39,517 nucleotides of DNA from Gemmatimonadales bacterium (GCA_043741355.1 JAYUAL010000438.1:1-39517); one strand, 5' to 3'; counted from the first letter of the stretch, positions 6,276 to 31,269 are shown. Made by a program: numbers and translations. Notes: a model not told the origin generated them from the sequence alone.

Positions 6276-9200
6276 GGCTTCGGGATCATGATGTTGAGCA
6301 CGCCGCGGTCCCGGAGCTTGGTGGTGAACGCTGGAAGGTCCGCTTTCTGGAGTGCGTCCAGCCGGGCCCGCGCGTCCTGAACCTGGGAGTGCAGCAGCTG
6401 CTGCACTTCGACCTGCTGCGACGTCGGCGCGAACTCCGACACCGAGATCCCGTCGGCAAGCCAGCCCAGCCGCCCCATGAGCTTCATCGGGTAGCGCACA
6501 TCATCCTGTCCTCGGCCGGTGAGCTGAAGCTGTACCAGGTTCTGTTCCACACTCAGGAATTTTTTCTCAAGCGAGTCGGCCTCCGCCTTGAGCCCGATCA
6601 TCGCGGAATCGGAACCGAGGATGTTCTGGAGCGCGATGAGCTGGCTTCGCCCCGATTCGATGGCATTGACCATCTCCGCCACGGCCTCGAGATCGGTCCG
6701 GATCTGCATGAGAACGGCGGTCTGGGCCCGGATCTCCTCCTCGCTCCCCCCGGATCCCGGATCCTTCCGGACCTCGAGGCGCTGGGTCGCGTCCCGGCCC
6801 GACGCGGTCACCTTGACCGTATAGATCCCCGGTGGCGCCAAGATGGCGAGGCGCACGCCGTCGGGCGCCGTCCGGCCGGCGGCGCCCACCGTGATGTCGG
6901 GCGCGTACTGCGGCGGGGTTCGGAGCTTGGCTTCCTTCGACGCATCGAAGCGAAGATCCCACCAGACGCGGTTGATCCCCGGCTTCCCCGGGGCGCCCTT
7001 GATGGTGCGGACGGTTTTTCCGCCGCCATCCTGGACGCCGAGCGTGACGCTATCCTTCGTTTCCGCCTTGAGCCAGTAGTCGAGCGGCACGCCGTTGGGC
7101 GGGTTCTGCCCGGCCGAAGGATCGTACGCCACCACGAACGGCGCCTCGACACCGCGGAGCCGGTAGGCCGCGCGGGGAGCAAAGAGATGAAGATCCTTCG
7201 CGACGAGGGCGGGCCCCATCTCACGGAGCGGGGTGATATCGTCGAGGATCCAGAAGCCGCGGCCGTAGGTGGCCACCACGAGATCACTGAAGTGCTCCTG
7301 GATCGCGATGCCGTACACCGGGGCATGCGGCAGGTTGCTCTGCAGCGGCTGCCAGTTGTCGCCGTCGTCGAATGACACGTAGAGCGCGTTCTCGGTGCCC
7401 AGGTAGAGCAGCCCGCGCCGGACCGGATCTTCCCGCACGGTGTGCGCAAAGCTCAGAGGACTCTTTGGAATCCCGGTGACGATGAGCTTCCAAGTCTTCC
7501 CGTAGTCCGCGGTTCGGTAGACCCAGGGATCCCGGTTGCTGACCTGGTGCCCGTCCACCGCGAGGTACGCGGTGCCGGTATCGTAGCGCGACGGCTCGAT
7601 GTGGCTGATAGTGGCCCAGGCGGGGAGGCCAGGCAGATTGGCGGTGAGGTTGACCCAGGTGGCGCCACCGTCCCTGCTGAGCTGGACCAGTCCGTCGTTG
7701 GTCCCCACCCAGAGGAGGCCCGCCTTGAGGCGCGACTCCGCGATGGAGTACACCGTCCCGGCGTATTCCACTCCGATATTGTCCGGGGTCAGGCCGCCCG
7801 AGCTCTGCTGCCGGCTCTTGTCGTTCCGGGTGAGGTCGGGGCCCAGCAGCTTCCAGCTCCGCCCTCCGTCGGTGGTGACGTGCACGTACTGGCTGCCGAC
7901 GTACACCCTGTTGTGGTCGTGGGGGGAGATGGTGAGTGGGAAATTCCAGATCCAGCGATACTTGAGGTCCGCGGCCGGCGAACCCATCGGCCCGTCGGGC
8001 CAGACCTCCACATTTTGCGCAATGCCGGTGCGAACATCGTAGCGGGTGACCACGCCGCCTGCCGCGCCCCAGCCCGAGGCGGTAGACCAGACGATGTTGG
8101 GGTCCTCCGGGTCGGGAGTGGCCCAGCCGCTCTCGCCCCCAGCCACCGAGTGGAACATTCCACGCGGAATGGAGCCCTCACCGGGCCCGAACTTGCTGTT
8201 GCTCGGCCCCATCGTGGACGGGCCATCCTGCCGGTTGCCATAGACGAAGTAGGGAATCCGGTTGTCGACGGTGACGTGGTACATCTGTGCCACCGGAGGC
8301 TGAATCTGGTTCCAGGTTTTCCCGCGGTTGATGGAGATGGAAATCCCGCCGTCATGCCCCACTACCTGCCGGTTGGCGTCGATCGGGTCGATCCAGATAT
8401 CGTGGTGATCGCCGCCCGGAATCTCGCCATTGGGTGGGTCGATGGTGGTCTTGCCGCCGTCGAGCGTCTTGCTGTAGAACGCCGAGAGGAAGTAGGCCTC
8501 GTTCTCGTTGTCGGGCGCCACCGCCATCCGGCTGTAGTAGGCGGTCCGGCCGGCAAGCTGGCGGTCATGGCTTACCAGCTGCCAGCTCTCACCGGCATCA
8601 TCGGAGCGCCAGAGCTCTCCAGTGCCCGCGTCCTTGCCGCGGACCGGTACGCCGTCACCGGTTTCGATGAGCGCATAGACCCGGTTCGGATTGCTGCGGG
8701 CTACCGCGAGGCCGATCTTGCCCACTGGTGTCTCGGGAAGGCCGTGACCGGAGAGCCGCTTCCAGGTGGTCCCGCCGTCCACCGACTTCCAGATGCCGCT
8801 CCCCGCGCCGCCGCTCTCCCGCCCCCAGGTATGGATCTCGATCTGCCAGGTTGCCGCGTAGAGAATCCGGGAGTTGCCGGGGTCCATCACCAGGTCGATC
8901 GCTCCGGTGCTGTCGTTGACGAAGAGCACCCGTTCCCAATTCTTTCCGCCGTCGCCGCTGCGATAGACCCCGCGCTCCGGCTGCGGGCCGTAGGCGTATC
9001 CCAGCGCCGCCACGAGTACCACGTCGGGATTCCTGGGATCGATGACGATCCGCGCGATTCGTCCCGTGTTGTCGAGTCCCATCCTGCTCCAGCTCTTGCC
9101 GGCATCGGTGGACTTGAATACCCCCCAGCCCAGCGAGATGTGGCTCCGGATGAACGGCTCTCCGGTGCCGACCCAGACCACGTTCGGGTCCGAGGGGGCC

Positions 9201-12857: not shown

Positions 12858-15797
12858 ATGAGGATCGATCGAAATACCATTGCGCTGCTTTACCGGCTGC
12901 TCGGGGCCGTCCTGGTGCTCGCCGTCCTGCCCGCGGTGAAACCGCTGGCGGCCCAGACCACCACCGGCAGCATTCGGGGCTATATCCGGGGCGATAACGG
13001 CTCGCCGCTGGTCGCCGCCGAGGTCAGGGCCAGGAGCCTGGCGACCGGCAGCGCTCGCGTGGCGACCACCAATACGAAGGGGTTCTTCGCCCTCTCCGGC
13101 CTGGTCCCCGGGTCCTACGCCATCGAGGTGCGCAGCATCGGTTTCAAGCCGAGCGGGCGGACGGAGCGGGTCCAGATCGGTCAGGACCTGACCCTCGACT
13201 TTACCCTCCTGGCCTCGGCGGTGCAGCTGGAGGAGATCTCGGTGTCGGCGGCCCCCGCGGTGGAGACCCGTTCCACCGAGGTGGCGACCAACGTAGCCCC
13301 GACCCAGGTCGAGAATCTTCCCAAGTCGGACCGGAACTTCCTGGCCCTGGCGGTGCTGGCGCCGGGAGTGCGGCTCACGGGGGACCGGATCGGCGATACC
13401 AGGAAGACCATCAGCGCCGGCGCGCAGGGGGCCGAGCAGATCAACGTGTTCATCGACGGGGCCAGCTACAAGAACGACATCCTCAAGGGCGGGGTGGCTG
13501 GCCAGGACGCCAGCCGCGGCAATCCGTTCGCGCTGAACGCGGTGCAGGAATTCCGGGTCATTACCCAGAACTACAAGGCGGAGTACCAGAAGGCCTCCAG
13601 CGCGATCATCACCGCCACGACGAAATCGGGCGGTAATACCTGGACCGGGAACGCCTTCTTCGCCTATCAGAACAAGAGCTTGGTGGGGCTGGACACCTTC
13701 CAGCTTCGCGACAAATTCATCGCCGATAGTATCGCCAAGAAGAACACCACTCCTTCGACCTTCCGTAAGCCCGACTACAACCGATCCCTGGTCGGCTTCA
13801 GCGCAGGTGGGCCGCTCGTGAGGAACAAGCTGTTCTTTTTCGGGTCCTACGAAGGGAACTACCAGAACCGGTCCAACCGGGTCAGCATCGTCCCGCCGAC
13901 CGGCTTCCCGGCGCTCGACACCATCAATTTTGCCAAGTACAACGGCGATTTTGGCTCTCCCTTCCGGTCTTCGCTCTTCTTCGGGAAGTTGAGCTACGCC
14001 GCGAGCCCGACCTCCTCGATGGAGCTGAGCCTCAATACCCGCGCGGAGAACGATATCCGGGACTTCGGCGGACTCAGCGCCTTCAGCACCGCCACCCGTT
14101 TCAAAAACGCGGTCACCACGGGGCTCCTCAAGCACAGCTATTTCAAGGGAACCTGGCTCAACGAAGCGCTGTTGTCGTACCAGCGGTATCACTACAACCC
14201 GGTGGCCGCCAACCCCGATCAGGTCAACCGATTCTTCGGCTTCGGTTGCTGCGCGCAGATCGGGGGGAACATCTCCAACCAGGATTTCACCCAGAAGCGG
14301 CTGTCTTTGCGTGACGATCTGACCTACTCCGGGCTGCAGATGGCCGGCGCGCACGTACTCAAGGGCGGTCTCAACGTCGATTTCAGCCGCTACGACGTCA
14401 TCAAGCAGAACTCGGAGAATCCCCGCTTCGTCTACGAGTCGTGGTTCAACAACTTCGGATTCCCGCAGCGGGTGGAGTTCCAGGCCGGCGATCCGAACCT
14501 CAAGACCAAGAACACTCAGTTGGGCGCGTACCTGCAGGACGACTGGAGTCCTTCGGACCGGCTGACCTTCTATCTAGGTGCCCGCTGGGACTACGAATCG
14601 GGTGCGATCAACACGAAGTACGTCACCCCCCGGGACGTGGTCGACTCGCTCACGAAGTATCAGAGCCGGCTCTTCCGGCCCCTGGAGCCCAACCGCTACT
14701 TCACCGACGGCACCAAGCGGAGCGCCTATCTGGGCGCCTTCCAGCCGCGGGTCGGTTTCTCCTACGGGATCACCCGGGACAACCGTACCACCGTGTTCGG
14801 CAGCGTCGGACTCTTCTACGACCGCACCCTCTTCGACCTGGCCACGGAGGAGAAATTCGCGCTGCAGCACCCCGGCTACAACATCCAGTTCTACCCCACG
14901 GGGGGTCCCGCCGAGGCGGGCAAGGCCGAGTGGAAAAACTCGTATCTCTCGGGCCGGGCGGCTGCCAACGCACTCATCGCCGGCCGGGCCTTCAACACCC
15001 GGGAAATCAAGTTGCTTCCCAATGACCTCAAGCCTCCCAAGTCCACCCAGTTCAGCGCGGGGGTGCGGCAGCTCCTCGGCGATTTTGCGGTGGAGCTGGC
15101 GTACAACGGGGTCCGAAGCAACAACACCTTCACCTTCTACTGGGCCAACCAGAACTTCACCTGCCCGCAGCGCTCGTTCGGCGTGGCGGGGTGCTTCGTC
15201 TCCAACCAGATCCCCGGGTTCGGCACGGTGCTCTTCGCGGACAATACCGGGAAGACCTGGTACGATGCGGCTACCCTGAAGGTCGATCGCGCGTTCCGGT
15301 CGGGCCCAAAATTCGGGTGGGGAGGCGGAATCGCATACACCCTGGCCAGGCGGCAAACCCAGGGGTTCAACGACGATTTCAGCTTCCCCAATCCGGCCGA
15401 CTATCCCAAGCAGGTCCGTAACGACGAGCGGCACCGGGTGGTGGCCAACTGGGTGATCGGGATGCCGTCCGTCTTCAACATCTTCTTCAGCGGCATCGCC
15501 ACCGTCGGCAGCGGCACCAACATCGACGTGGGCGACCGTTTTGGCGGCACCGGTAACCCTCTGATTCCCGGGGGCTTCAACGCGCCCACCTACAAGATGC
15601 TCGACCTCCGTCTCAAGAAGGATTTCGTGTTCGGGCGGTCGCGCTTCGGATTGAGCATCGACGGGTTCAACGTCCTGAACAGTCAGAACCTCGGGTGCTA
15701 CAATACCGGCAACCCGGCCGATGGAGGTTTCGGCAAGGCCGGCTGCACCATTTCCGACCCGCGCCGGGTCCAGTTCGGGCTCGACCTCGGTTTCTAG
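12858..15797 (+). CDS. TonB-dependent outer-membrane receptor with N-terminal carboxypeptidase-regulatory-like domain
   Basis: GGGAGG lies upstream of ATG 12858 and the protein has a signal peptide. A CarboxypepD_reg-like segment is present (GSIRGYI...GFFALSGLVPGSYAIEVRSIGF), followed by a plug-like region. The 979-aa protein ends in ...FGLDLGF, a terminal aromatic residue. Confidence 0.9.
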   Translation: MRIDRNTIALLYRLLGAVLVLAVLPAVKPLAAQTTTGSIRGYIRGDNGSPLVAAEVRARSLATGSARVATTNTKGFFALSGLVPGSYAIEVRSIGFKPSGRTERVQIGQDLTLDFTLLASAVQLEEISVSAAPAVETRSTEVATNVAPTQVENLPKSDRNFLALAVLAPGVRLTGDRIGDTRKTISAGAQGAEQINVFIDGASYKNDILKGGVAGQDASRGNPFALNAVQEFRVITQNYKAEYQKASSAIITATTKSGGNTWTGNAFFAYQNKSLVGLDTFQLRDKFIADSIAKKNTTPSTFRKPDYNRSLVGFSAGGPLVRNKLFFFGSYEGNYQNRSNRVSIVPPTGFPALDTINFAKYNGDFGSPFRSSLFFGKLSYAASPTSSMELSLNTRAENDIRDFGGLSAFSTATRFKNAVTTGLLKHSYFKGTWLNEALLSYQRYHYNPVAANPDQVNRFFGFGCCAQIGGNISNQDFTQKRLSLRDDLTYSGLQMAGAHVLKGGLNVDFSRYDVIKQNSENPRFVYESWFNNFGFPQRVEFQAGDPNLKTKNTQLGAYLQDDWSPSDRLTFYLGARWDYESGAINTKYVTPRDVVDSLTKYQSRLFRPLEPNRYFTDGTKRSAYLGAFQPRVGFSYGITRDNRTTVFGSVGLFYDRTLFDLATEEKFALQHPGYNIQFYPTGGPAEAGKAEWKNSYLSGRAAANALIAGRAFNTREIKLLPNDLKPPKSTQFSAGVRQLLGDFAVELAYNGVRSNNTFTFYWANQNFTCPQRSFGVAGCFVSNQIPGFGTVLFADNTGKTWYDAATLKVDRAFRSGPKFGWGGGIAYTLARRQTQGFNDDFSFPNPADYPKQVRNDERHRVVANWVIGMPSVFNIFFSGIATVGSGTNIDVGDRFGGTGNPLIPGGFNAPTYKMLDLRLKKDFVFGRSRFGLSIDGFNVLNSQNLGCYNTGNPADGGFGKAGCTISDPRRVQFGLDLGF

Positions 15798-15852
15798 AGT
15801 CCGGGGGGCGAGGGGCACCGGGATCCTGCGGCGCCCTTCGCTACCCTTCGGC

Positions 15853-17295
15853 ATGCCCCGACTCCCGCTCATCCCCTCCCCATCGGGCTCGGCCTGGCCA
15901 GCGCTGGCCCTGTCGCTGCTCTTCGCCTGCGGCGGGTCGGTCCCCACGACGGCTCCGCCACCGGCAGCGCCGCGGATTCAGGCGCTGCTCGACACCGTGC
16001 AGCAACGCACCTTCAACTTCTTCTGGGAGCGGACCGAGGCCGCCACCGGCCTCACGCCGGATCGCTGGCCCACGCCGTCGTTCTCGAGCATTGCGGCCGT
16101 CGGGTTCGCCCTCACCGCCTATCCGATCGGCGTCGAGCAGGGCTACGTGACGCGTAGCGCCGCAGCGAATCGGGTGCTCACGACGCTGCAATTCTTCTAT
16201 CAATTGCCCCAGGGCCCTGGGACGTCCGGCATCGGCGGCTATCAGGGCTTCTTCTATCATTTTCTCGATATGTCTAGCGGGCTCCGATACCAAACGGTGG
16301 AGTTGTCCAGCATCGACACGTCGTTGCTCATGGCAGGGGTCTTGTTCTGCCAACAGTACTTCGACCGAGCCGACTCCGCCGAGGCCGCGATTCGGGCCTA
16401 CGCCGACTCACTGTACCGCCGGGTGGATTGGCGTTGGTTCCAGCCGCGGCCGCCGCTGCTATCGCACGGCTGGAGCGAGGAAGGCTTTAACAACCTCGAT
16501 TGGCGCGGCCTGGATGAGGCGATGATTATCTACATCCTCGCGCTCGGATCGCCGACCCACGCCGTCGACCCCGCAGCTTGGAACGCCTGGGCCGCCACCT
16601 ACCAATGGGGTGATTTCTATAGCCAGCCCCACGTTGGCTTCGCCCCGCTCTTCGGCCATCAGTACACCCAAATCTGGGTGGATTTCCGGGGCATCGCCGA
16701 CGACTACATGCGGAGCAAGGGGATCGACTACTTCGAGAATTCCCGCCGCGCCACCTACGCGCAGCGCGGCTACGCCATCGCCAACCCCAACGACTGGGAC
16801 GGCTACGGGGCGGCGATTTTCGGCCTCTCTGCAGCGGACGGTCCCCGGGACGTGACGCTGACCGTACGCGGCCGTCCCCGCCGCTTCTTCAGCTATGCCG
16901 CGCGCGGCGCCTCGTTCACCGAGGTGCGCGACGACGGCACCATCGCCCCCACCGCAGCGGCGAGTTCGATCCCCTTCGCGCCGGAGATCGTCGGACCCGC
17001 GCTGGTGGCCATGCGGGAGCGCTATGGCGACGGCCTGTTCGGGCAGTACGGATTCTTCGACTCATTCAATCCCACCTGGCAGTGGGCGCAACCGGCACCC
17101 CAGTATGGGCGCTATCTGCCGGGAAAGGGCTGGTTCGACACTGATTACCTGGGGATCGACCAGGGGCCGATCCTGGCGATGATCGCCAACTACCGGACCG
17201 AATTGGTGTGGAAGTACATGCGGAGGAGCCCCTACGTGATCCAGGGCCTCCGTCGGGCGGGCTTCAGGGGCGGCTGGCTCGACGCGGCACCATGA
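15853..17295 (+). CDS. GH144-like (COG5368 'glucoamylase-like'/DUF3131) lipoprotein; candidate endo-beta-1,2-glucanase
   Basis: Internal ATG at 15853. The lipobox is LLFAC. The region LLDTVQQRTFNFFWERTEAATGLTPDRWP...AAVGFALTAYPIG...GFFYHFLD...SSIDTSLLMAGVLF resembles the (alpha/alpha)6 GH144 family as I remember it. The assignment has not been verified by a search. Confidence 0.6.
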   Translation: MPRLPLIPSPSGSAWPALALSLLFACGGSVPTTAPPPAAPRIQALLDTVQQRTFNFFWERTEAATGLTPDRWPTPSFSSIAAVGFALTAYPIGVEQGYVTRSAAANRVLTTLQFFYQLPQGPGTSGIGGYQGFFYHFLDMSSGLRYQTVELSSIDTSLLMAGVLFCQQYFDRADSAEAAIRAYADSLYRRVDWRWFQPRPPLLSHGWSEEGFNNLDWRGLDEAMIIYILALGSPTHAVDPAAWNAWAATYQWGDFYSQPHVGFAPLFGHQYTQIWVDFRGIADDYMRSKGIDYFENSRRATYAQRGYAIANPNDWDGYGAAIFGLSAADGPRDVTLTVRGRPRRFFSYAARGASFTEVRDDGTIAPTAAASSIPFAPEIVGPALVAMRERYGDGLFGQYGFFDSFNPTWQWAQPAPQYGRYLPGKGWFDTDYLGIDQGPILAMIANYRTELVWKYMRRSPYVIQGLRRAGFRGGWLDAAP

Positions 17296-18596
17296 GAGGA
17301 CGCAAGGACGCAAGGATGCAAGGACGCAAGGTTGAAGCCGTTCCTCGCTTTGCGTCTTTGCGTCTTTGCGTCTTTGCGTCTTTTCTGGGAGCCTGCACCG
17401 CCACCGACGACTCAACGCTCCGCTTCTGGGCCTTCGGGCGCGAGGGCGAAGTGGTGCAGGAGCTGGCCCACGACTTCGAGCGCGAGCACCCGGGGGTCCG
17501 AATACGGGTCCAGCAGATTCCCTGGAGCGCGGCGCACGAGAAGCTCCTCACTGCTATCGTGGGACGCGCCTCTCCCGACATCGCGCAGATGGGCAATACC
17601 TGGATTCCGGAGATGGTCACCCTGGGCGCGCTCGCTCCGCTCCCATTCAAGCTCGCCAACAGTAGCTACTTCCCCGGCATCGTGGCCACCAACATCGTTG
17701 ACGACACGCTCTACGGGCTTCCCTGGTACGTGGACACCCGAGTGCTTTTCTACCGGAAGGACATCCTCGCCAAGGCAGGCTATCGCACCATGCCGGAGAG
17801 CTGGGCCGGCTGGCGCGAAGCGATGCTGGCGATCAAGCGAACGGCAGGGCCCGGACGCTACGCCATCTTCCTGCCGATGAACGAGTGGCCGCCACTGGCG
17901 ATCCTCGGGCTGCAGGCCGGCTCGCCGCTGGTCACCGAGCAGGGCTTCGGCGCCTTCCGGCAGCCGGCCTTCTCCCAAGCCTTCGACTTCCTGCTGTCGC
18001 TCTATCGCGACGGCCTCGCTGCTCCGGTCAGCAGTAACGAAATCGCGAATCTCTACCAAGAGTTTTCTCGCGGCACCTTCGCGATGTACATCTCCGGCCC
18101 CTGGAATCTGGGAGAGTTCCGCCGCCGGCTCCCCCCTGAGCAGCAGAACGCCTGGGGCACCGCGGCGCTGCCCGGTCCAACCGGCCCCCAGTCGGGCGTG
18201 TCGCTGGCCGGCGGCTCCAGCCTGGTGGTGTTCCGGTCCTCGCGCCACCAGGCGCTCGCGAATGAGCTGGTCGAGTATCTCTCCCGGCCCGAGCAGCAGG
18301 CCCGGTTTTACCGACTCACCGGCGATCTTCCCGCCCGCCGTGAGGCCTGGGCCGACTCCGCGCTGGCCCAGGACCGCGAGGCGGATGCCTTCCGGATCCA
18401 GCTCGAGCGCGCGGTTCCGACGCCGATGGTGCCGGAGTGGGAGGAAGTCACCACGAAGTTGATGGACCACGTCGAGGCGGCGGTGCGAGGCGGCCAGGCG
18501 CCCGCCGCGGCACTGGCGGCGCTCGATGGCGACGTGGACCGGCTGCTGGAGCGGCGCCGCTACCTCAAAAGCCGCCGCGCCGGCGGCGCGCCATGA
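17292..18596 (+). CDS. ABC transporter extracellular solute-binding lipoprotein (CUT1/family 1 sugar SBP)
   Basis: The start is ATG 17292 (ATGA overlap with the upstream stop) or ATG 17316. The lipobox is FLGAC. The family-1 SBP body includes LRFWAFG...IPWSAAHEKL...GNTWIPE...LPWYVDTRVLFYRKD. Confidence 0.85.
   Translation: MRGRKDARMQGRKVEAVPRFASLRLCVFASFLGACTATDDSTLRFWAFGREGEVVQELAHDFEREHPGVRIRVQQIPWSAAHEKLLTAIVGRASPDIAQMGNTWIPEMVTLGALAPLPFKLANSSYFPGIVATNIVDDTLYGLPWYVDTRVLFYRKDILAKAGYRTMPESWAGWREAMLAIKRTAGPGRYAIFLPMNEWPPLAILGLQAGSPLVTEQGFGAFRQPAFSQAFDFLLSLYRDGLAAPVSSNEIANLYQEFSRGTFAMYISGPWNLGEFRRRLPPEQQNAWGTAALPGPTGPQSGVSLAGGSSLVVFRSSRHQALANELVEYLSRPEQQARFYRLTGDLPARREAWADSALAQDREADAFRIQLERAVPTPMVPEWEEVTTKLMDHVEAAVRGGQAPAAALAALDGDVDRLLERRRYLKSRRAGGAP
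17294..17385 (+). repeat. Inverted arrays of 8-nt tandem repeats: (GGACGCAA)x4 and (CTTTGCGT)x4, forming a 38-bp stem with a 16-nt loop
   Basis: I paired 17294-17331 with 17348-17385 base by base. This gave 31 Watson-Crick pairs plus 7 G.U pairs and no mismatch. The structure spans the GH144 stop and both candidate starts of the solute-binding-protein gene. Confidence 0.85.
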
Positions 18597-29854: not shown

Positions 29855-31195
29855 TCAGGGGGGAGTGACGATCCCGAGAGGCTCCGTGGTCCTCCAACGA
29901 CCACGGGTAAAGTCGGGAACTTGGATCGGTCGGCTGCCGGCCTTGTTGGAGATCTCGGTCAGCGGGCCCACTACGCTCCACGCCGCCGCATCGTAGACGT
30001 TCTGATCGGTGGGAAGTCCTTCGCGCAGGCAGGTGATCAGCCGCCAGTCCTCCAGCCAGTCCATTCCACCGTGTCCGACTTTCGCGTTGAGGACACTGTC
30101 CTTTCTCCAGAGCGGATGGTCGTGGCTCTCGAACCACTGGGCCGCCGGATCCCAGCGGTCTTCCCCTTTGCTCATCCCCTCCACGTAGACCCGCTGCGGG
30201 TAGCCTTCCACCAGCCCCTTGGTGCCCTGGAGGACGTACTTCCTGCTGTAGGGACGGGGCAGGTTGGTGTCGTGGGTGACGTAGATCGTCTGGCCCAGAA
30301 CCGTGCGAATCAGGGTCGCGTTGACGTCGCCGAGCACGTACCGCTCGTTGCGGCGCGGGTCGCCGGCGGCCAGATGTTCGGCTTGCCAGCGCTGTAGCCC
30401 GCGGGAAGGGCCGCTCACCGAGGTCAAGTAGTCGAACTGATTCCCCCGGTTGATGCTCATTGCCTGGGAAACCGGCCCCAGCCCGTGGGTCGGGTAGAGA
30501 TTGCCGTTTCGCCGGGTGGCGTGGGCCCGGCGCCAGAGGCCCTCGCCTTCATTGCTGAACTTGATGCTCCGGAGATCGTGATTGTAGCCGCACTCTCCGT
30601 GCATCAGCTCGCCGAGAATCCCCCGCCGAGCCAGATGGAAGGCCAGCATCTCGAGCCTGTCGTAGCAGCAGTTCTCCATCATCACACAGTGCTTCTGGTA
30701 CTTTTCCGCTGCCTCCACCAGGGCCCAGCAGTCGTCCACGGTATATGCGATCGGCACCTCGGAGGCGGAGTGCTTGCCGTGCCGCATCGCGGCCAGGCAG
30801 ATCGGGACGTGCCACTCCCAAGGCGTGGCGTTGAAGACGAGATCGAGCTCCTCCTCGGCGCACAACCGCTCGAAGTCCCGCGGGCCCCTGGTATAGGCCT
30901 TCGGCTCGGGCCGTCCCGCGGCGACGATTTTCTGCTGCCACCCGGCGACTTTTTCGGGGACGATGTCGCAGAGCGCGGTGATCTCGACCCCGTCCAGCGC
31001 CAGCAGATTTTCGACGTGACTGCTGCCCTGGCCTCCCACACCGACGAATCCGATCCGGACCCGATCCATGGGGGCGGCGCGGTAGAGCAGGGTGGCCTGT
31101 TGGGGGAGCGGGGAACGGGGAGCCGGGAGCGGGAGGGCGCCCGCAGCCGCCGCCGCGACAGACTCCCTGAGGAATTCTCTGCGAGAAGTATCCAT
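29855..31195 (-). CDS. Tat-exported Gfo/Idh/MocA-family NAD-dependent oxidoreductase, GH109-like
   Basis: The twin-arginine motif is SRREFLR. The Rossmann N-terminus is RIGFVGVGGQGSSHV. The central segment HCVMMENCCYDRLEMLAFHLARRGILGELMHGECGYNHDLR resembles GH109-type proteins. Confidence 0.7.
   Translation of the reverse strand: MDTSRREFLRESVAAAAAGALPLPAPRSPLPQQATLLYRAAPMDRVRIGFVGVGGQGSSHVENLLALDGVEITALCDIVPEKVAGWQQKIVAAGRPEPKAYTRGPRDFERLCAEEELDLVFNATPWEWHVPICLAAMRHGKHSASEVPIAYTVDDCWALVEAAEKYQKHCVMMENCCYDRLEMLAFHLARRGILGELMHGECGYNHDLRSIKFSNEGEGLWRRAHATRRNGNLYPTHGLGPVSQAMSINRGNQFDYLTSVSGPSRGLQRWQAEHLAAGDPRRNERYVLGDVNATLIRTVLGQTIYVTHDTNLPRPYSRKYVLQGTKGLVEGYPQRVYVEGMSKGEDRWDPAAQWFESHDHPLWRKDSVLNAKVGHGGMDWLEDWRLITCLREGLPTDQNVYDAAAWSVVGPLTEISNKAGSRPIQVPDFTRGRWRTTEPLGIVTPP
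31102..31137. repeat. Degenerate GGGGAGC heptamer array (about 4-5 units) inside the 5' coding region of the GH109-like gene
   Basis: The units read directly are GGGGAGC (31103), GGGGAAC (31110), GGGGAGC (31117), CGGGAGC (31124) and GGGAGGG (31131). The array is complementary to the array at 31221-31269. Confidence 0.85.
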
Positions 31196-31220
31196 GCACC
31201 GATTCCTCTTATGTTTGTCC

Positions 31221-31269
31221 GCTCCCCGCTCCCCGCTCCCCGCTCCCCGCTCCCCGCTCCCCGCTCCCT
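31221..31269. repeat. (GCTCCCC)x6 perfect plus 1 imperfect heptamer tandem repeat; reads (GGGGAGC)n on the transcribed minus strand
   Basis: Read directly. The array fills 49 of the 76 intergenic bases between the M20 stop (31272) and the GH109-like start (31195). On the minus strand it fits G4-N3-G4-N3-G4-N3-G4. Confidence 0.9.

Follow-up and report, generated by a model that had tools for sequence, protein, structure and literature searches.

The window analyzed here is a whole contig of 39,517 nt (GCA_043741355.1, JAYUAL010000438.1:1-39517) belonging to the metagenome-assembled genome (MAG) of a Gemmatimonadales soil bacterium (2.79 Mb, 510 contigs, 67% GC), labelled G000 in the following. 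Within a beta-1,2-glucan operon on this contig, a GH144-type lipoprotein gene and the gene of a CUT1-type solute-binding protein (SBP) overlap by four nucleotides, and the junction is occupied by a long hairpin built from two opposed arrays of 8-nt units. The hairpin is a copy of an octamer array family that is dispersed through the host genome and anchored to stop codons, and it is read in frame as part of the SBP signal peptide. The genes and features of the junction, counted from the first letter of the window, are as follows.

15721-17295, plus strand: GH144-type (PF10091 'glycoamylase') lipoprotein gene, from the open reading frame (ORF) list, the translation and Pfam (E 1.9e-76).
17292-17294, plus strand: SBP start ATG overlapping the GH144 stop (ATGA), the ancestral coupled start, from the sequence and the orthologous junctions.
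17292-17396, plus strand: coding region of the lipoprotein signal peptide, M1 to C35, with lipobox LGAC, from the translation and orthologue comparison.
17292-18596, plus strand: CUT1-type SBP gene (PF01547/PF13416), from the translation and Pfam.
17293-17295, plus strand: GH144 stop TGA, from the translation.
17294-17331, plus strand: left, purine-rich arm, GAGA followed by four GGACGCAA units including one GGATGCAA, beginning at the stop codon, from the sequence and the stem search.
17316-17318, plus strand: in-frame internal ATG arising from the variant unit, with an AAGGA motif about 7 nt upstream, buried in the stem, from the sequence.
17332-17347, plus strand: loop of 16 nt, TTGAAGCCGTTCCTCG, in which a small inner stem is possible, from the fold and the stem search.
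17348-17385, plus strand: right, pyrimidine-rich arm, 4.5 units of CTTTGCGT, from the sequence and the stem search.
17381-17386, plus strand: TTTTCT at the 3' base of the stem, reminiscent of a weak terminator tail, from the sequence.

The SBP reading frame translates as MRGRKDARMQGRKVEAVPRFASLRLCVFASFLGAC, with the lipobox LGAC and its Cys codon at 17394-17396. Around the overlap the sequence reads ...CACC ATGA GAG GACGCAAG GACGCAAG GATGCAAG GACGCAAG GTTGAAGCCGTTCCTCG CTTTGCGT x4 CTTTTCTGGGAGCCTGC..., placing the four GGACGCAA units, one of them GGATGCAA, at 17298-17329 and the 4.5 CTTTGCGT units at 17348-17383. Tandem Repeats Finder recovered both arrays with a period of 8 (17297-17331, 4.4 copies, 92% matches; 17348-17383, 4.5 copies, 100% matches). 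An independent, ungapped search returned the same 38-pair stem that the first-pass annotation of this DNA had described (17294-17331 paired with 17348-17385), comprising 31 Watson-Crick pairs and 7 G.T pairs on the plus strand, i.e., G.U in the RNA, with no A.C pair, no other mismatch and a loop of 16 nt. The stem spans positions +3 to +94 of the SBP cistron, and the coverage claimed for it holds: the GH144 stop and the ATG at 17292 lie inside or overlap it, as do signal-peptide codons. In a 141-nt context the plus strand folds with a very high stability of -90.4 kcal/mol (z -9.7), reached by none of 200 shuffles, and the minus strand folds at -64.5 kcal/mol (z -4.4).

The hairpin lies in the middle of the 39.5-kb contig with syntenic genes on either side and is therefore no assembly artefact. 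Rfam covariance models run over the whole window gave no match at the gathering threshold. A miniature inverted-repeat transposable element was considered as a candidate and rejected: the feet of the stem (ATGAGAG and TTTTCTGGGAG) show no convincing target-site duplication, and the left arm is an array of variable copy number, unlike a fixed terminal repeat.

To place the hairpin in its genomic context, the host genome was scanned for period-8 repeats, which yielded about 110 arrays at about 90 loci. Their units form subfamilies sharing a G-W-C-G core, of which GACGCTAR is the commonest and GAGGCTAR, GACGCAAR, GACGCCAR, GACGGGAR, GTCGGTAG and GGCGGACR are the others; arrays mixing GAGGC and GACGC units also exist. 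Stems of at least 14 Watson-Crick pairs can form at 32 loci, the stem of the window being the most perfect. The family is strongly anchored to stop codons: with genes called by a crude GC3-based filter, an array edge lies within -4 to +6 nt of a stop at 24 of the 90 loci, against an expectation of 2.1 ± 1.3 (maximum 6) from 200 trials of random non-genic placement. Array starts can be read directly at the stops (TAAgacgcta, TAGacgcta, TGAcgcta, TAGgaggcta, TGAcgggagg), as with TGAgaggacgcaagg in the window. The strand order downstream of the stop is purine-rich first in 22 cases versus 7 (p 0.008). Both rules, stop anchoring and the purine arm first, are followed by the window copy, TGA-GAGGACGCAAGG. 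At the convergent gene pairs on contigs C14, C365, C167 and C482, a family hairpin fills the entire gap from stop to stop. The first-pass annotation had named a dispersed, neutral repeat without positional bias as a finding that would weaken a regulatory role; the arrays are indeed dispersed, but the anchoring shows that they are not positionally neutral. Because this anchoring is so strong, a role at gene ends is plausible.

Most family units contain TAA or TAG. By approximate count, arrays of stop-containing units lie outside ORFs at 33 of 37 loci, as three TAR units suffice to close all frames of both strands, and those of stop-free units lie inside stop-to-stop ORFs at 25 of 36 loci. Stop-free hairpins of the GGACGGGA type were also noted inside long ORFs, apparently in frame, on contigs C428 (4648-4724 and 6511-6592), C383 (23791-23859), C189 and C278 (14718-14751).

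The window copy is made of CAAG/TTTG units, the stop-free counterpart of CTAR/YTAG, and both of its arms are therefore open in the SBP frame. The left arm codes for a charged, Arg/Lys-rich n-region, RGRKDARMQGRK, and the right arm for a hydrophobic h-region, RFASLRLCVFASF (Leu/Phe/Ala/Val/Cys); the translation agrees with the h-region previously assigned to this arm, and the ATG that the variant unit was said to create at 17316 is present and in frame. As an 8-nt unit shifts the codon phase from one copy to the next, the purine array gives the cyclic peptide D-A-R-T-Q-G-R-K in whichever frame it is read, and the pyrimidine array likewise gives L-A-S-L-R-(L/P)-C-V-(F/L). A translated hairpin is thus a charged stretch followed by a hydrophobic one, which is the layout of a signal peptide. 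In G000 and in three other genomes of the comparison described below (G011, G024 and G012), the frame is open from the A/GTGA start across both arms to the lipobox. All 16 left-arm units found at GH144/SBP junctions are of the stop-free CAAN form, though CTAR is the family majority. In the right-arm units of G002 and G009, TAG is retained out of frame only, and the in-frame position holds TTG or TCG. The open frames, the stop-free units and the restriction of TAG to the other frames support both the ATGA start and the use of the array as a signal peptide.

Three array-coded signal-peptide cases were found in the host genome, the window SBP being one of them. On contig C419 (approximately 2090-2200), an octamer array of the GGACGGAC/GGCGGACA type begins at a second ATGA overlap and codes for the n-region (MTGGRTHGRTGGRAGR LSGALLAALLGAGTASGQ) of a Sec-type signal peptide (MTGGRTHGRTGGRAGRLSGALLAALLGAGTASGQ). 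On contig C56 (1-160, minus strand), a GACGCAAG array codes for the n-region MRRKDAWTQGRK of a secreted protein and is followed by a normal h-region; the TAA stop of the upstream gene belongs to array remnants, and the gene of the secreted protein runs off the contig end. The array on C312, a candidate for the third case, was rejected, its frame closing after 36 codons. In L057, a non-Gemmatimonadales MAG, a 9-nt tandem repeat (GCACTTCTC x3) codes for the h-region of the orthologous SBP signal peptide.

Orthologous GH144/SBP junctions were then compared across MAGs, which are fragmented and incomplete, with some contigs breaking at array repeats. The junctions occur in the following states.

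Both arms: G000, G011, G024, G012.
Right arm only, with a one-unit left remnant: G009 (SBP 90% identical), G002, G007.
Neither arm: G023, G005, G022, G001, G021, G013, G017 and more than 20 further Gemmatimonadales, Eisenbacteria and other loci.

The 4-nt A/GTGA overlap between GH144 stop and SBP start recurs at almost every orthologous junction examined, so the coupling predates the repeat. The right arm of G000 is homologous by alignment to those of G009, G002, G007, G011 and G024. In this comparison the junction folds with a z of -8.1 in G000 and -6.1 in both G011 and G024, and the value is about 0 for nearly all others (-0.5 in G009, +0.2 in G002; -0.5 to +0.8 over G009, G002 and G007). 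In the SBP tree, G009 is the sister and closest relative of G000 and G002 comes next, an order implying that the left arm was either lost twice or expanded in G000. It has four units in G000 and a single unit-like remnant in each of G009 and G002. The right arm was probably expanded recently in G000, as its array is 100% homogeneous. At 35 aa, the signal peptide of G000 is longer than that of G009, which has 26 aa. Judging from these arrays, the near-perfect stem appears to be young, a product of array expansion and homogenization in the host species with no long conservation behind it.

The family is specific to a subclade of the host's genus. Family pattern matches number 30-200 in each of 12 of the 26 genomes of the genus and 0-2 in each of the remaining 14. 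Another 300 genomes of the phylum are nearly devoid of the family, and array-bearing junctions are confined to genomes that carry it. Unit flavours also differ: among the matches listed, G012 has mostly GACGCAAA and G007 mostly GAGGCTAR. In the phylum survey, the reversed control pattern gave matches of its own in G050 (16+18) and G272 (10+8), which indicates that other Gemmatimonadota carry different octamer arrays of their own. Unrelated palindromes are present at the GH144/SBP junction of other Gemmatimonadales (L025, L033, L027, L026), among them a REP-like (repetitive extragenic palindromic) pair, GTCATCCCGAGGGAGC...GGGATGAC, and a CCCCTCCCC/GGGGAGGGG palindrome; the junction therefore seems permissive for, or favourable to, a stem-loop. 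In L025 the SBP start has apparently shifted downstream of the junction palindrome.

Both the placement at stops and the junction palindromes bear on the idea that the hairpin is an intercistronic RNA 3'-end element, either a terminator poor in U or a REP-like barrier to 3' exonucleases, which would raise the GH144 and TonB-receptor transcript over that of the SBP and permease. Family hairpins begin at stops and fill the stop-to-stop gaps on C14, C365, C167 and C482, the window copy runs from the GH144 TGA to a terminal UUUUCU, and the palindromes of L025, L033 and L027 share its position without sharing its sequence. In E. coli, the malE-malF REP stabilizes the upstream mRNA, and REP and BIME elements resemble the present family as dispersed extragenic hairpins at gene 3' ends; here, however, the arms are tandem arrays rather than a unique palindrome, and Y1_Tnp genes do not track the arrays. 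The idea is weakened by the position of the hairpin, which lies within SBP codons in a compact operon, where termination would starve the importer genes and translating ribosomes would keep the stem melted. A canonical intrinsic terminator was not supported, as the consensus scan makes no call at the hairpin and the array family lacks a consistent U-tail. On balance, a 3'-end element is a possible but rather unlikely explanation for the hairpin as a whole.

An origin of the arrays through REP elements and their associated tyrosine transposases was rejected on the grounds that Y1 transposase genes do not co-occur with arrays across the genus. The Y1 family PF01797 was found only in G000, G008 and G019, i.e., it is absent from 11 of the 12 array-positive genomes and present in two array-negative ones, all counted in incomplete MAGs. 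The sole Y1-transposase fragment of the host genome lies on contig C507 (1498-1689).

The first-pass annotation had favoured a regulatory function specific to this locus, and had named orthologous loci without structure as a finding that would weaken it. This is largely what was found, since the junctions of G009, G002 and G007 and of more than 30 other orthologues have no structure above background. The proposal amounts to a dedicated riboregulator, selected here at the RNA level to throttle SBP synthesis or to uncouple it from the glucanase. It draws support from the sense fold of -90 kcal/mol versus -64.5 kcal/mol for the antisense strand, from the fact that every pair other than Watson-Crick is a sense-strand G.U, and from family hairpins at the same junction in G011, G024 and G012 in which both arms have changed together (GACGC/GCGTC versus GAGGC/GCCTC). 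The three relatives without a left arm fold at background level, however, and more than 30 further orthologues have neither arm. The double change is better read as concerted array turnover than as covariation, because mixed GAGGC/GACGC arrays exist: junction units are GAGGCAAR/YTTGCCTC in G011 and G024 where G000 has GACGCAAG/CTTTGCGTC, and the concerted C/G exchange fits the genome-wide unit flavours rather than stepwise compensatory selection.

The G.U pairs, from which RNA-level selection had been argued, do not bear that weight. Five of the seven wobble pairs occupy one repeated unit position (17298, 17306, 17314, 17322 and 17330), and the remaining two are the ATG-creating T at 17317 and the stem base at 17296; the pattern amounts to about three independent transitions, with a chance of 1 in 8 that all of them land on the G.U side. 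Among stop-anchored family hairpins with one transcribed strand, sense G.U exceeds antisense G.U by 28 to 11, and by 21 to 11 once the window locus is left out, which is suggestive but not significant; in-ORF hairpins show no bias. Moreover, the bias can also be explained at the protein level, because T for C in the right arm changes CCT (Pro) to CTT (Leu) and CTT (Leu) to TTT (Phe) in the h-region. Pro in the h-region is tolerated by relatives, according to the orthologue comparison. As proof of RNA-level selection the strand bias was rejected as under-powered, both at the locus and in the family. The hairpin is not a conserved, purpose-built switch, given that the closest relatives lack the structure, and we consider a dedicated riboregulator improbable. 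The hairpin is real and striking, yet an ordinary member of a lineage-specific repeat class; what sets it apart is that it doubles as a signal peptide at a junction of coupled genes.

The difference in left-arm copy number between species, four units in G000 versus one remnant in G009 and G002, would also fit a slipped-strand contingency switch in which the gain or loss of one unit in either arm frameshifts the SBP. The 8-nt unit is not a multiple of 3 and lies inside signal-peptide codons. The model for such a switch is Neisseria opa, in which CTCTT pentamers in the signal-peptide region are present in many units and undergo documented on/off slipped-strand switching. As in opa, a pyrimidine-rich tandem repeat whose unit is not a multiple of 3 codes for the hydrophobic core of a signal peptide, but opa has many more units and no complementary arm. 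With merely four units per arm, every assembled orthologue in frame and, as the product, an ABC-importer SBP of a glycan-utilization operon, which would be an atypical phase-variable surface antigen, such a switch is very improbable here.

The hairpin could also be a neutral passenger, a by-product of slippage with fold-back correction or of some other array-making process, tolerated as a workable signal peptide and without meaningful effect on expression because coupled ribosomes would keep the stem open. Sister species have gained and lost arms rapidly, which agrees with this, as do the unit flavours that differ by genome, the many single arrays without a partner and an ATGA coupling older than the hairpin. 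Stop anchoring and purine-first polarity, on the other hand, are hard to obtain from slippage alone, and a hairpin as stable as this one (about -80 kcal/mol), placed at +3 of a start codon, probably carries a kinetic cost. We regard neutrality as possible but rather unlikely.

The reading we prefer, with a probability of about 70%, is that the window hairpin is one copy of the dispersed 8-nt array family, absorbed in frame into the SBP signal peptide, young and labile, and with a probable effect on translational coupling. In this family, arrays start at a gene's stop codon with the purine-rich strand first and are often followed by the complementary array, giving a transcript that ends in a long hairpin. 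Because the two genes overlap by ATGA, a copy at the GH144/SBP junction has to be translatable in order to persist. In the transcript, the hairpin would block free 30S entry at the SBP start, and ribosomes terminating at the GH144 TGA would already have melted the stem base and could reinitiate at the AUG that overlaps it. Most SBP synthesis would then fall to ribosomes arriving from GH144, and SBP translation is likely, on these thermodynamic grounds, to depend strictly on that of GH144. Judging by the other members of the family, the hairpin may in addition pose a 3' barrier, or a partial stop, to transcripts that end after GH144.

The structural prerequisites of such coupling are present in silico, namely the ATGA at 17292-17295 and a structure that hinders independent initiation. 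Opening the region from -18 to +15 around ATG 17292 has a computed cost of 36 kcal/mol, the highest of 18 orthologous starts (range 14-35), so independent SBP initiation should be rare; at the internal ATG 17316 the cost is 56.7 kcal/mol. The suggestion that independent initiation is made costlier by the stem is in line with these computed values, orthologous starts without the full hairpin requiring 14-30 kcal/mol. A known form of structure-dependent coupling is that of the phage MS2 coat and replicase genes, in which the downstream initiation region is locked and is opened only by ribosomes on the upstream cistron. The junction resembles it in the 4-nt AUGA overlap and in initiation impeded by structure, an effect that is predicted for the SBP. 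It differs in that the structured region follows the AUG (+3 to +94) within the coding sequence, leaves the ribosome-binding site uncovered and is a copy of a repeat family.

Several points weigh against the preferred reading. Opening costs of 14-30 kcal/mol apply even to orthologous starts without a hairpin, so the increment is about 10-15 kcal/mol and not all-or-none. The coupling and barrier effects are deduced from thermodynamics together with what is generally known of termination-reinitiation at AUGA overlaps. A single array without a partner arm is present at many family loci, and the hairpin may therefore not be the functional unit of the family; its hairpins also have no consistent U-tract downstream. 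The gene calls came from a crude GC3-based ORF filter, which leaves the inside- and outside-ORF counts approximate.

A more far-reaching proposal is that this Gemmatimonadales subclade has a gene-end process that writes or renews 8-nt arrays at stop codons, making the hairpins self-renewing modules for signal peptides and coupling. Unit flavours would then vary by genome with the arms staying complementary through turnover, and wherever an ATGA junction precedes an exported protein, translation of the arms would automatically yield a charged n-region and a hydrophobic h-region. Hairpins could in this way create new signal peptides or substitute for existing ones, and would make translation of the downstream gene obligately coupled. 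We put this forward as speculative and unlikely.

Dispersed arrays of this kind have been described in other bacteria. In Geobacter metallireducens, sites made of four octanucleotides in tandem (class 1, consensus GTTGCTYN) occur as 24 pairs on opposite strands and were proposed to bind global regulators of the IHF/HU type (Aklujkar et al. 2009, PMC2700814). These sites share with the present family about four 8-nt units per arm, opposite strands, variable spacing, tens of copies per genome and species specificity. The unit sequence and the phylum differ, and stop anchoring and signal-peptide translation are not reported for Geobacter in the sections of that paper considered here. In Xanthomonas, GGGAATC forms approximately 185 dispersed arrays per genome, 70-75 of them convergent (inverted) pairs, with a strong stop-codon bias (Rehm et al. 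2015, PMC4692102). These heptamers and the Nostoc GGGGA(C/T)T heptamers carry G3-4 tracts, form G-quadruplexes in vitro and are rarely intragenic (PMC4692102). The likeness lies in dispersed arrays, in inverted pairs able to form stem-loops and in a copy number that varies by species. In contrast, the window unit GGACGCAA has no G3 tract, only GG, and signal-peptide dual coding is not described for the heptamers. Tracts of G3 or longer are present in other host subfamilies (GGACGGGA); by the strict definition of G-quadruplex simple sequence repeats, which calls for at least four such tracts in an array, the window unit falls outside that class. By its period of 8, about 90 loci, lineage specificity, 32 stem-forming loci and placement at stop codons, the host family conforms to the Geobacter/Xanthomonas type.

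In Beggiatoaceae, TAACTGA direct repeats contain stops in all three frames and consequently sit at ORF ends, overlapping stops and just before the next start; a post-transcriptional role has been proposed for them (MacGregor 2015, PMC4679880). They too are short tandem units that carry stops and are placed at ORF ends, but they are mostly direct repeats with one inverted case, consist of an AT-rich heptamer and lie mainly in front of start codons. Our literature search found no paper on such repeats in Gemmatimonadota.

What seemed a bespoke riboregulator is accordingly reclassified as a copy of an abundant, fast-turnover repeat class, one without established function in Geobacter, Xanthomonas, cyanobacteria and Beggiatoa. 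The sister species, with 4+4, 1+4 or no units at one ATGA junction of the beta-1,2-glucan operon, amount to a natural experiment. The junction also exemplifies the entry of a non-coding repeat into coding sequence, in which the stop-free variant of a stop-rich repeat supplies a lipoprotein signal peptide predicted to work. For annotation, the arrays matter because they affect start codons, signal peptides and contig breaks in Gemmatimonadales MAGs.

Such breaks were observed at the junction itself. The contig end G012:C52 (L007/L024) is a fold-back chimera in which the sequence beyond the left arm is the reverse complement of the 5' coding region of the SBP, an artefact of assembly to which the inverted arrays gave rise. 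Contig breaks at the GH144/SBP junction are likewise seen in G014 and G002. A second SBP-like match in G002 (C93) was examined as a polymorphic allele and rejected, being just the overlapping contig end of the same junction. Two scans of metagenome contigs with flank patterns revealed no contig of the same species; the first was empty, and the second gave 15 unrelated matches (a gene with an LGACTATD-type motif) and one G009-like contig, L112, whose junction has the right arm only, as in G009.

Elsewhere in the window, a second opposed pair of arrays has a 7-nt period, with GGGGAGC x4.4 at 31103-31133 and CCGCTCC x7.1 (100% matches) at 31219-31268. A weaker CCGCTCC-like array is found at 8796-8826.

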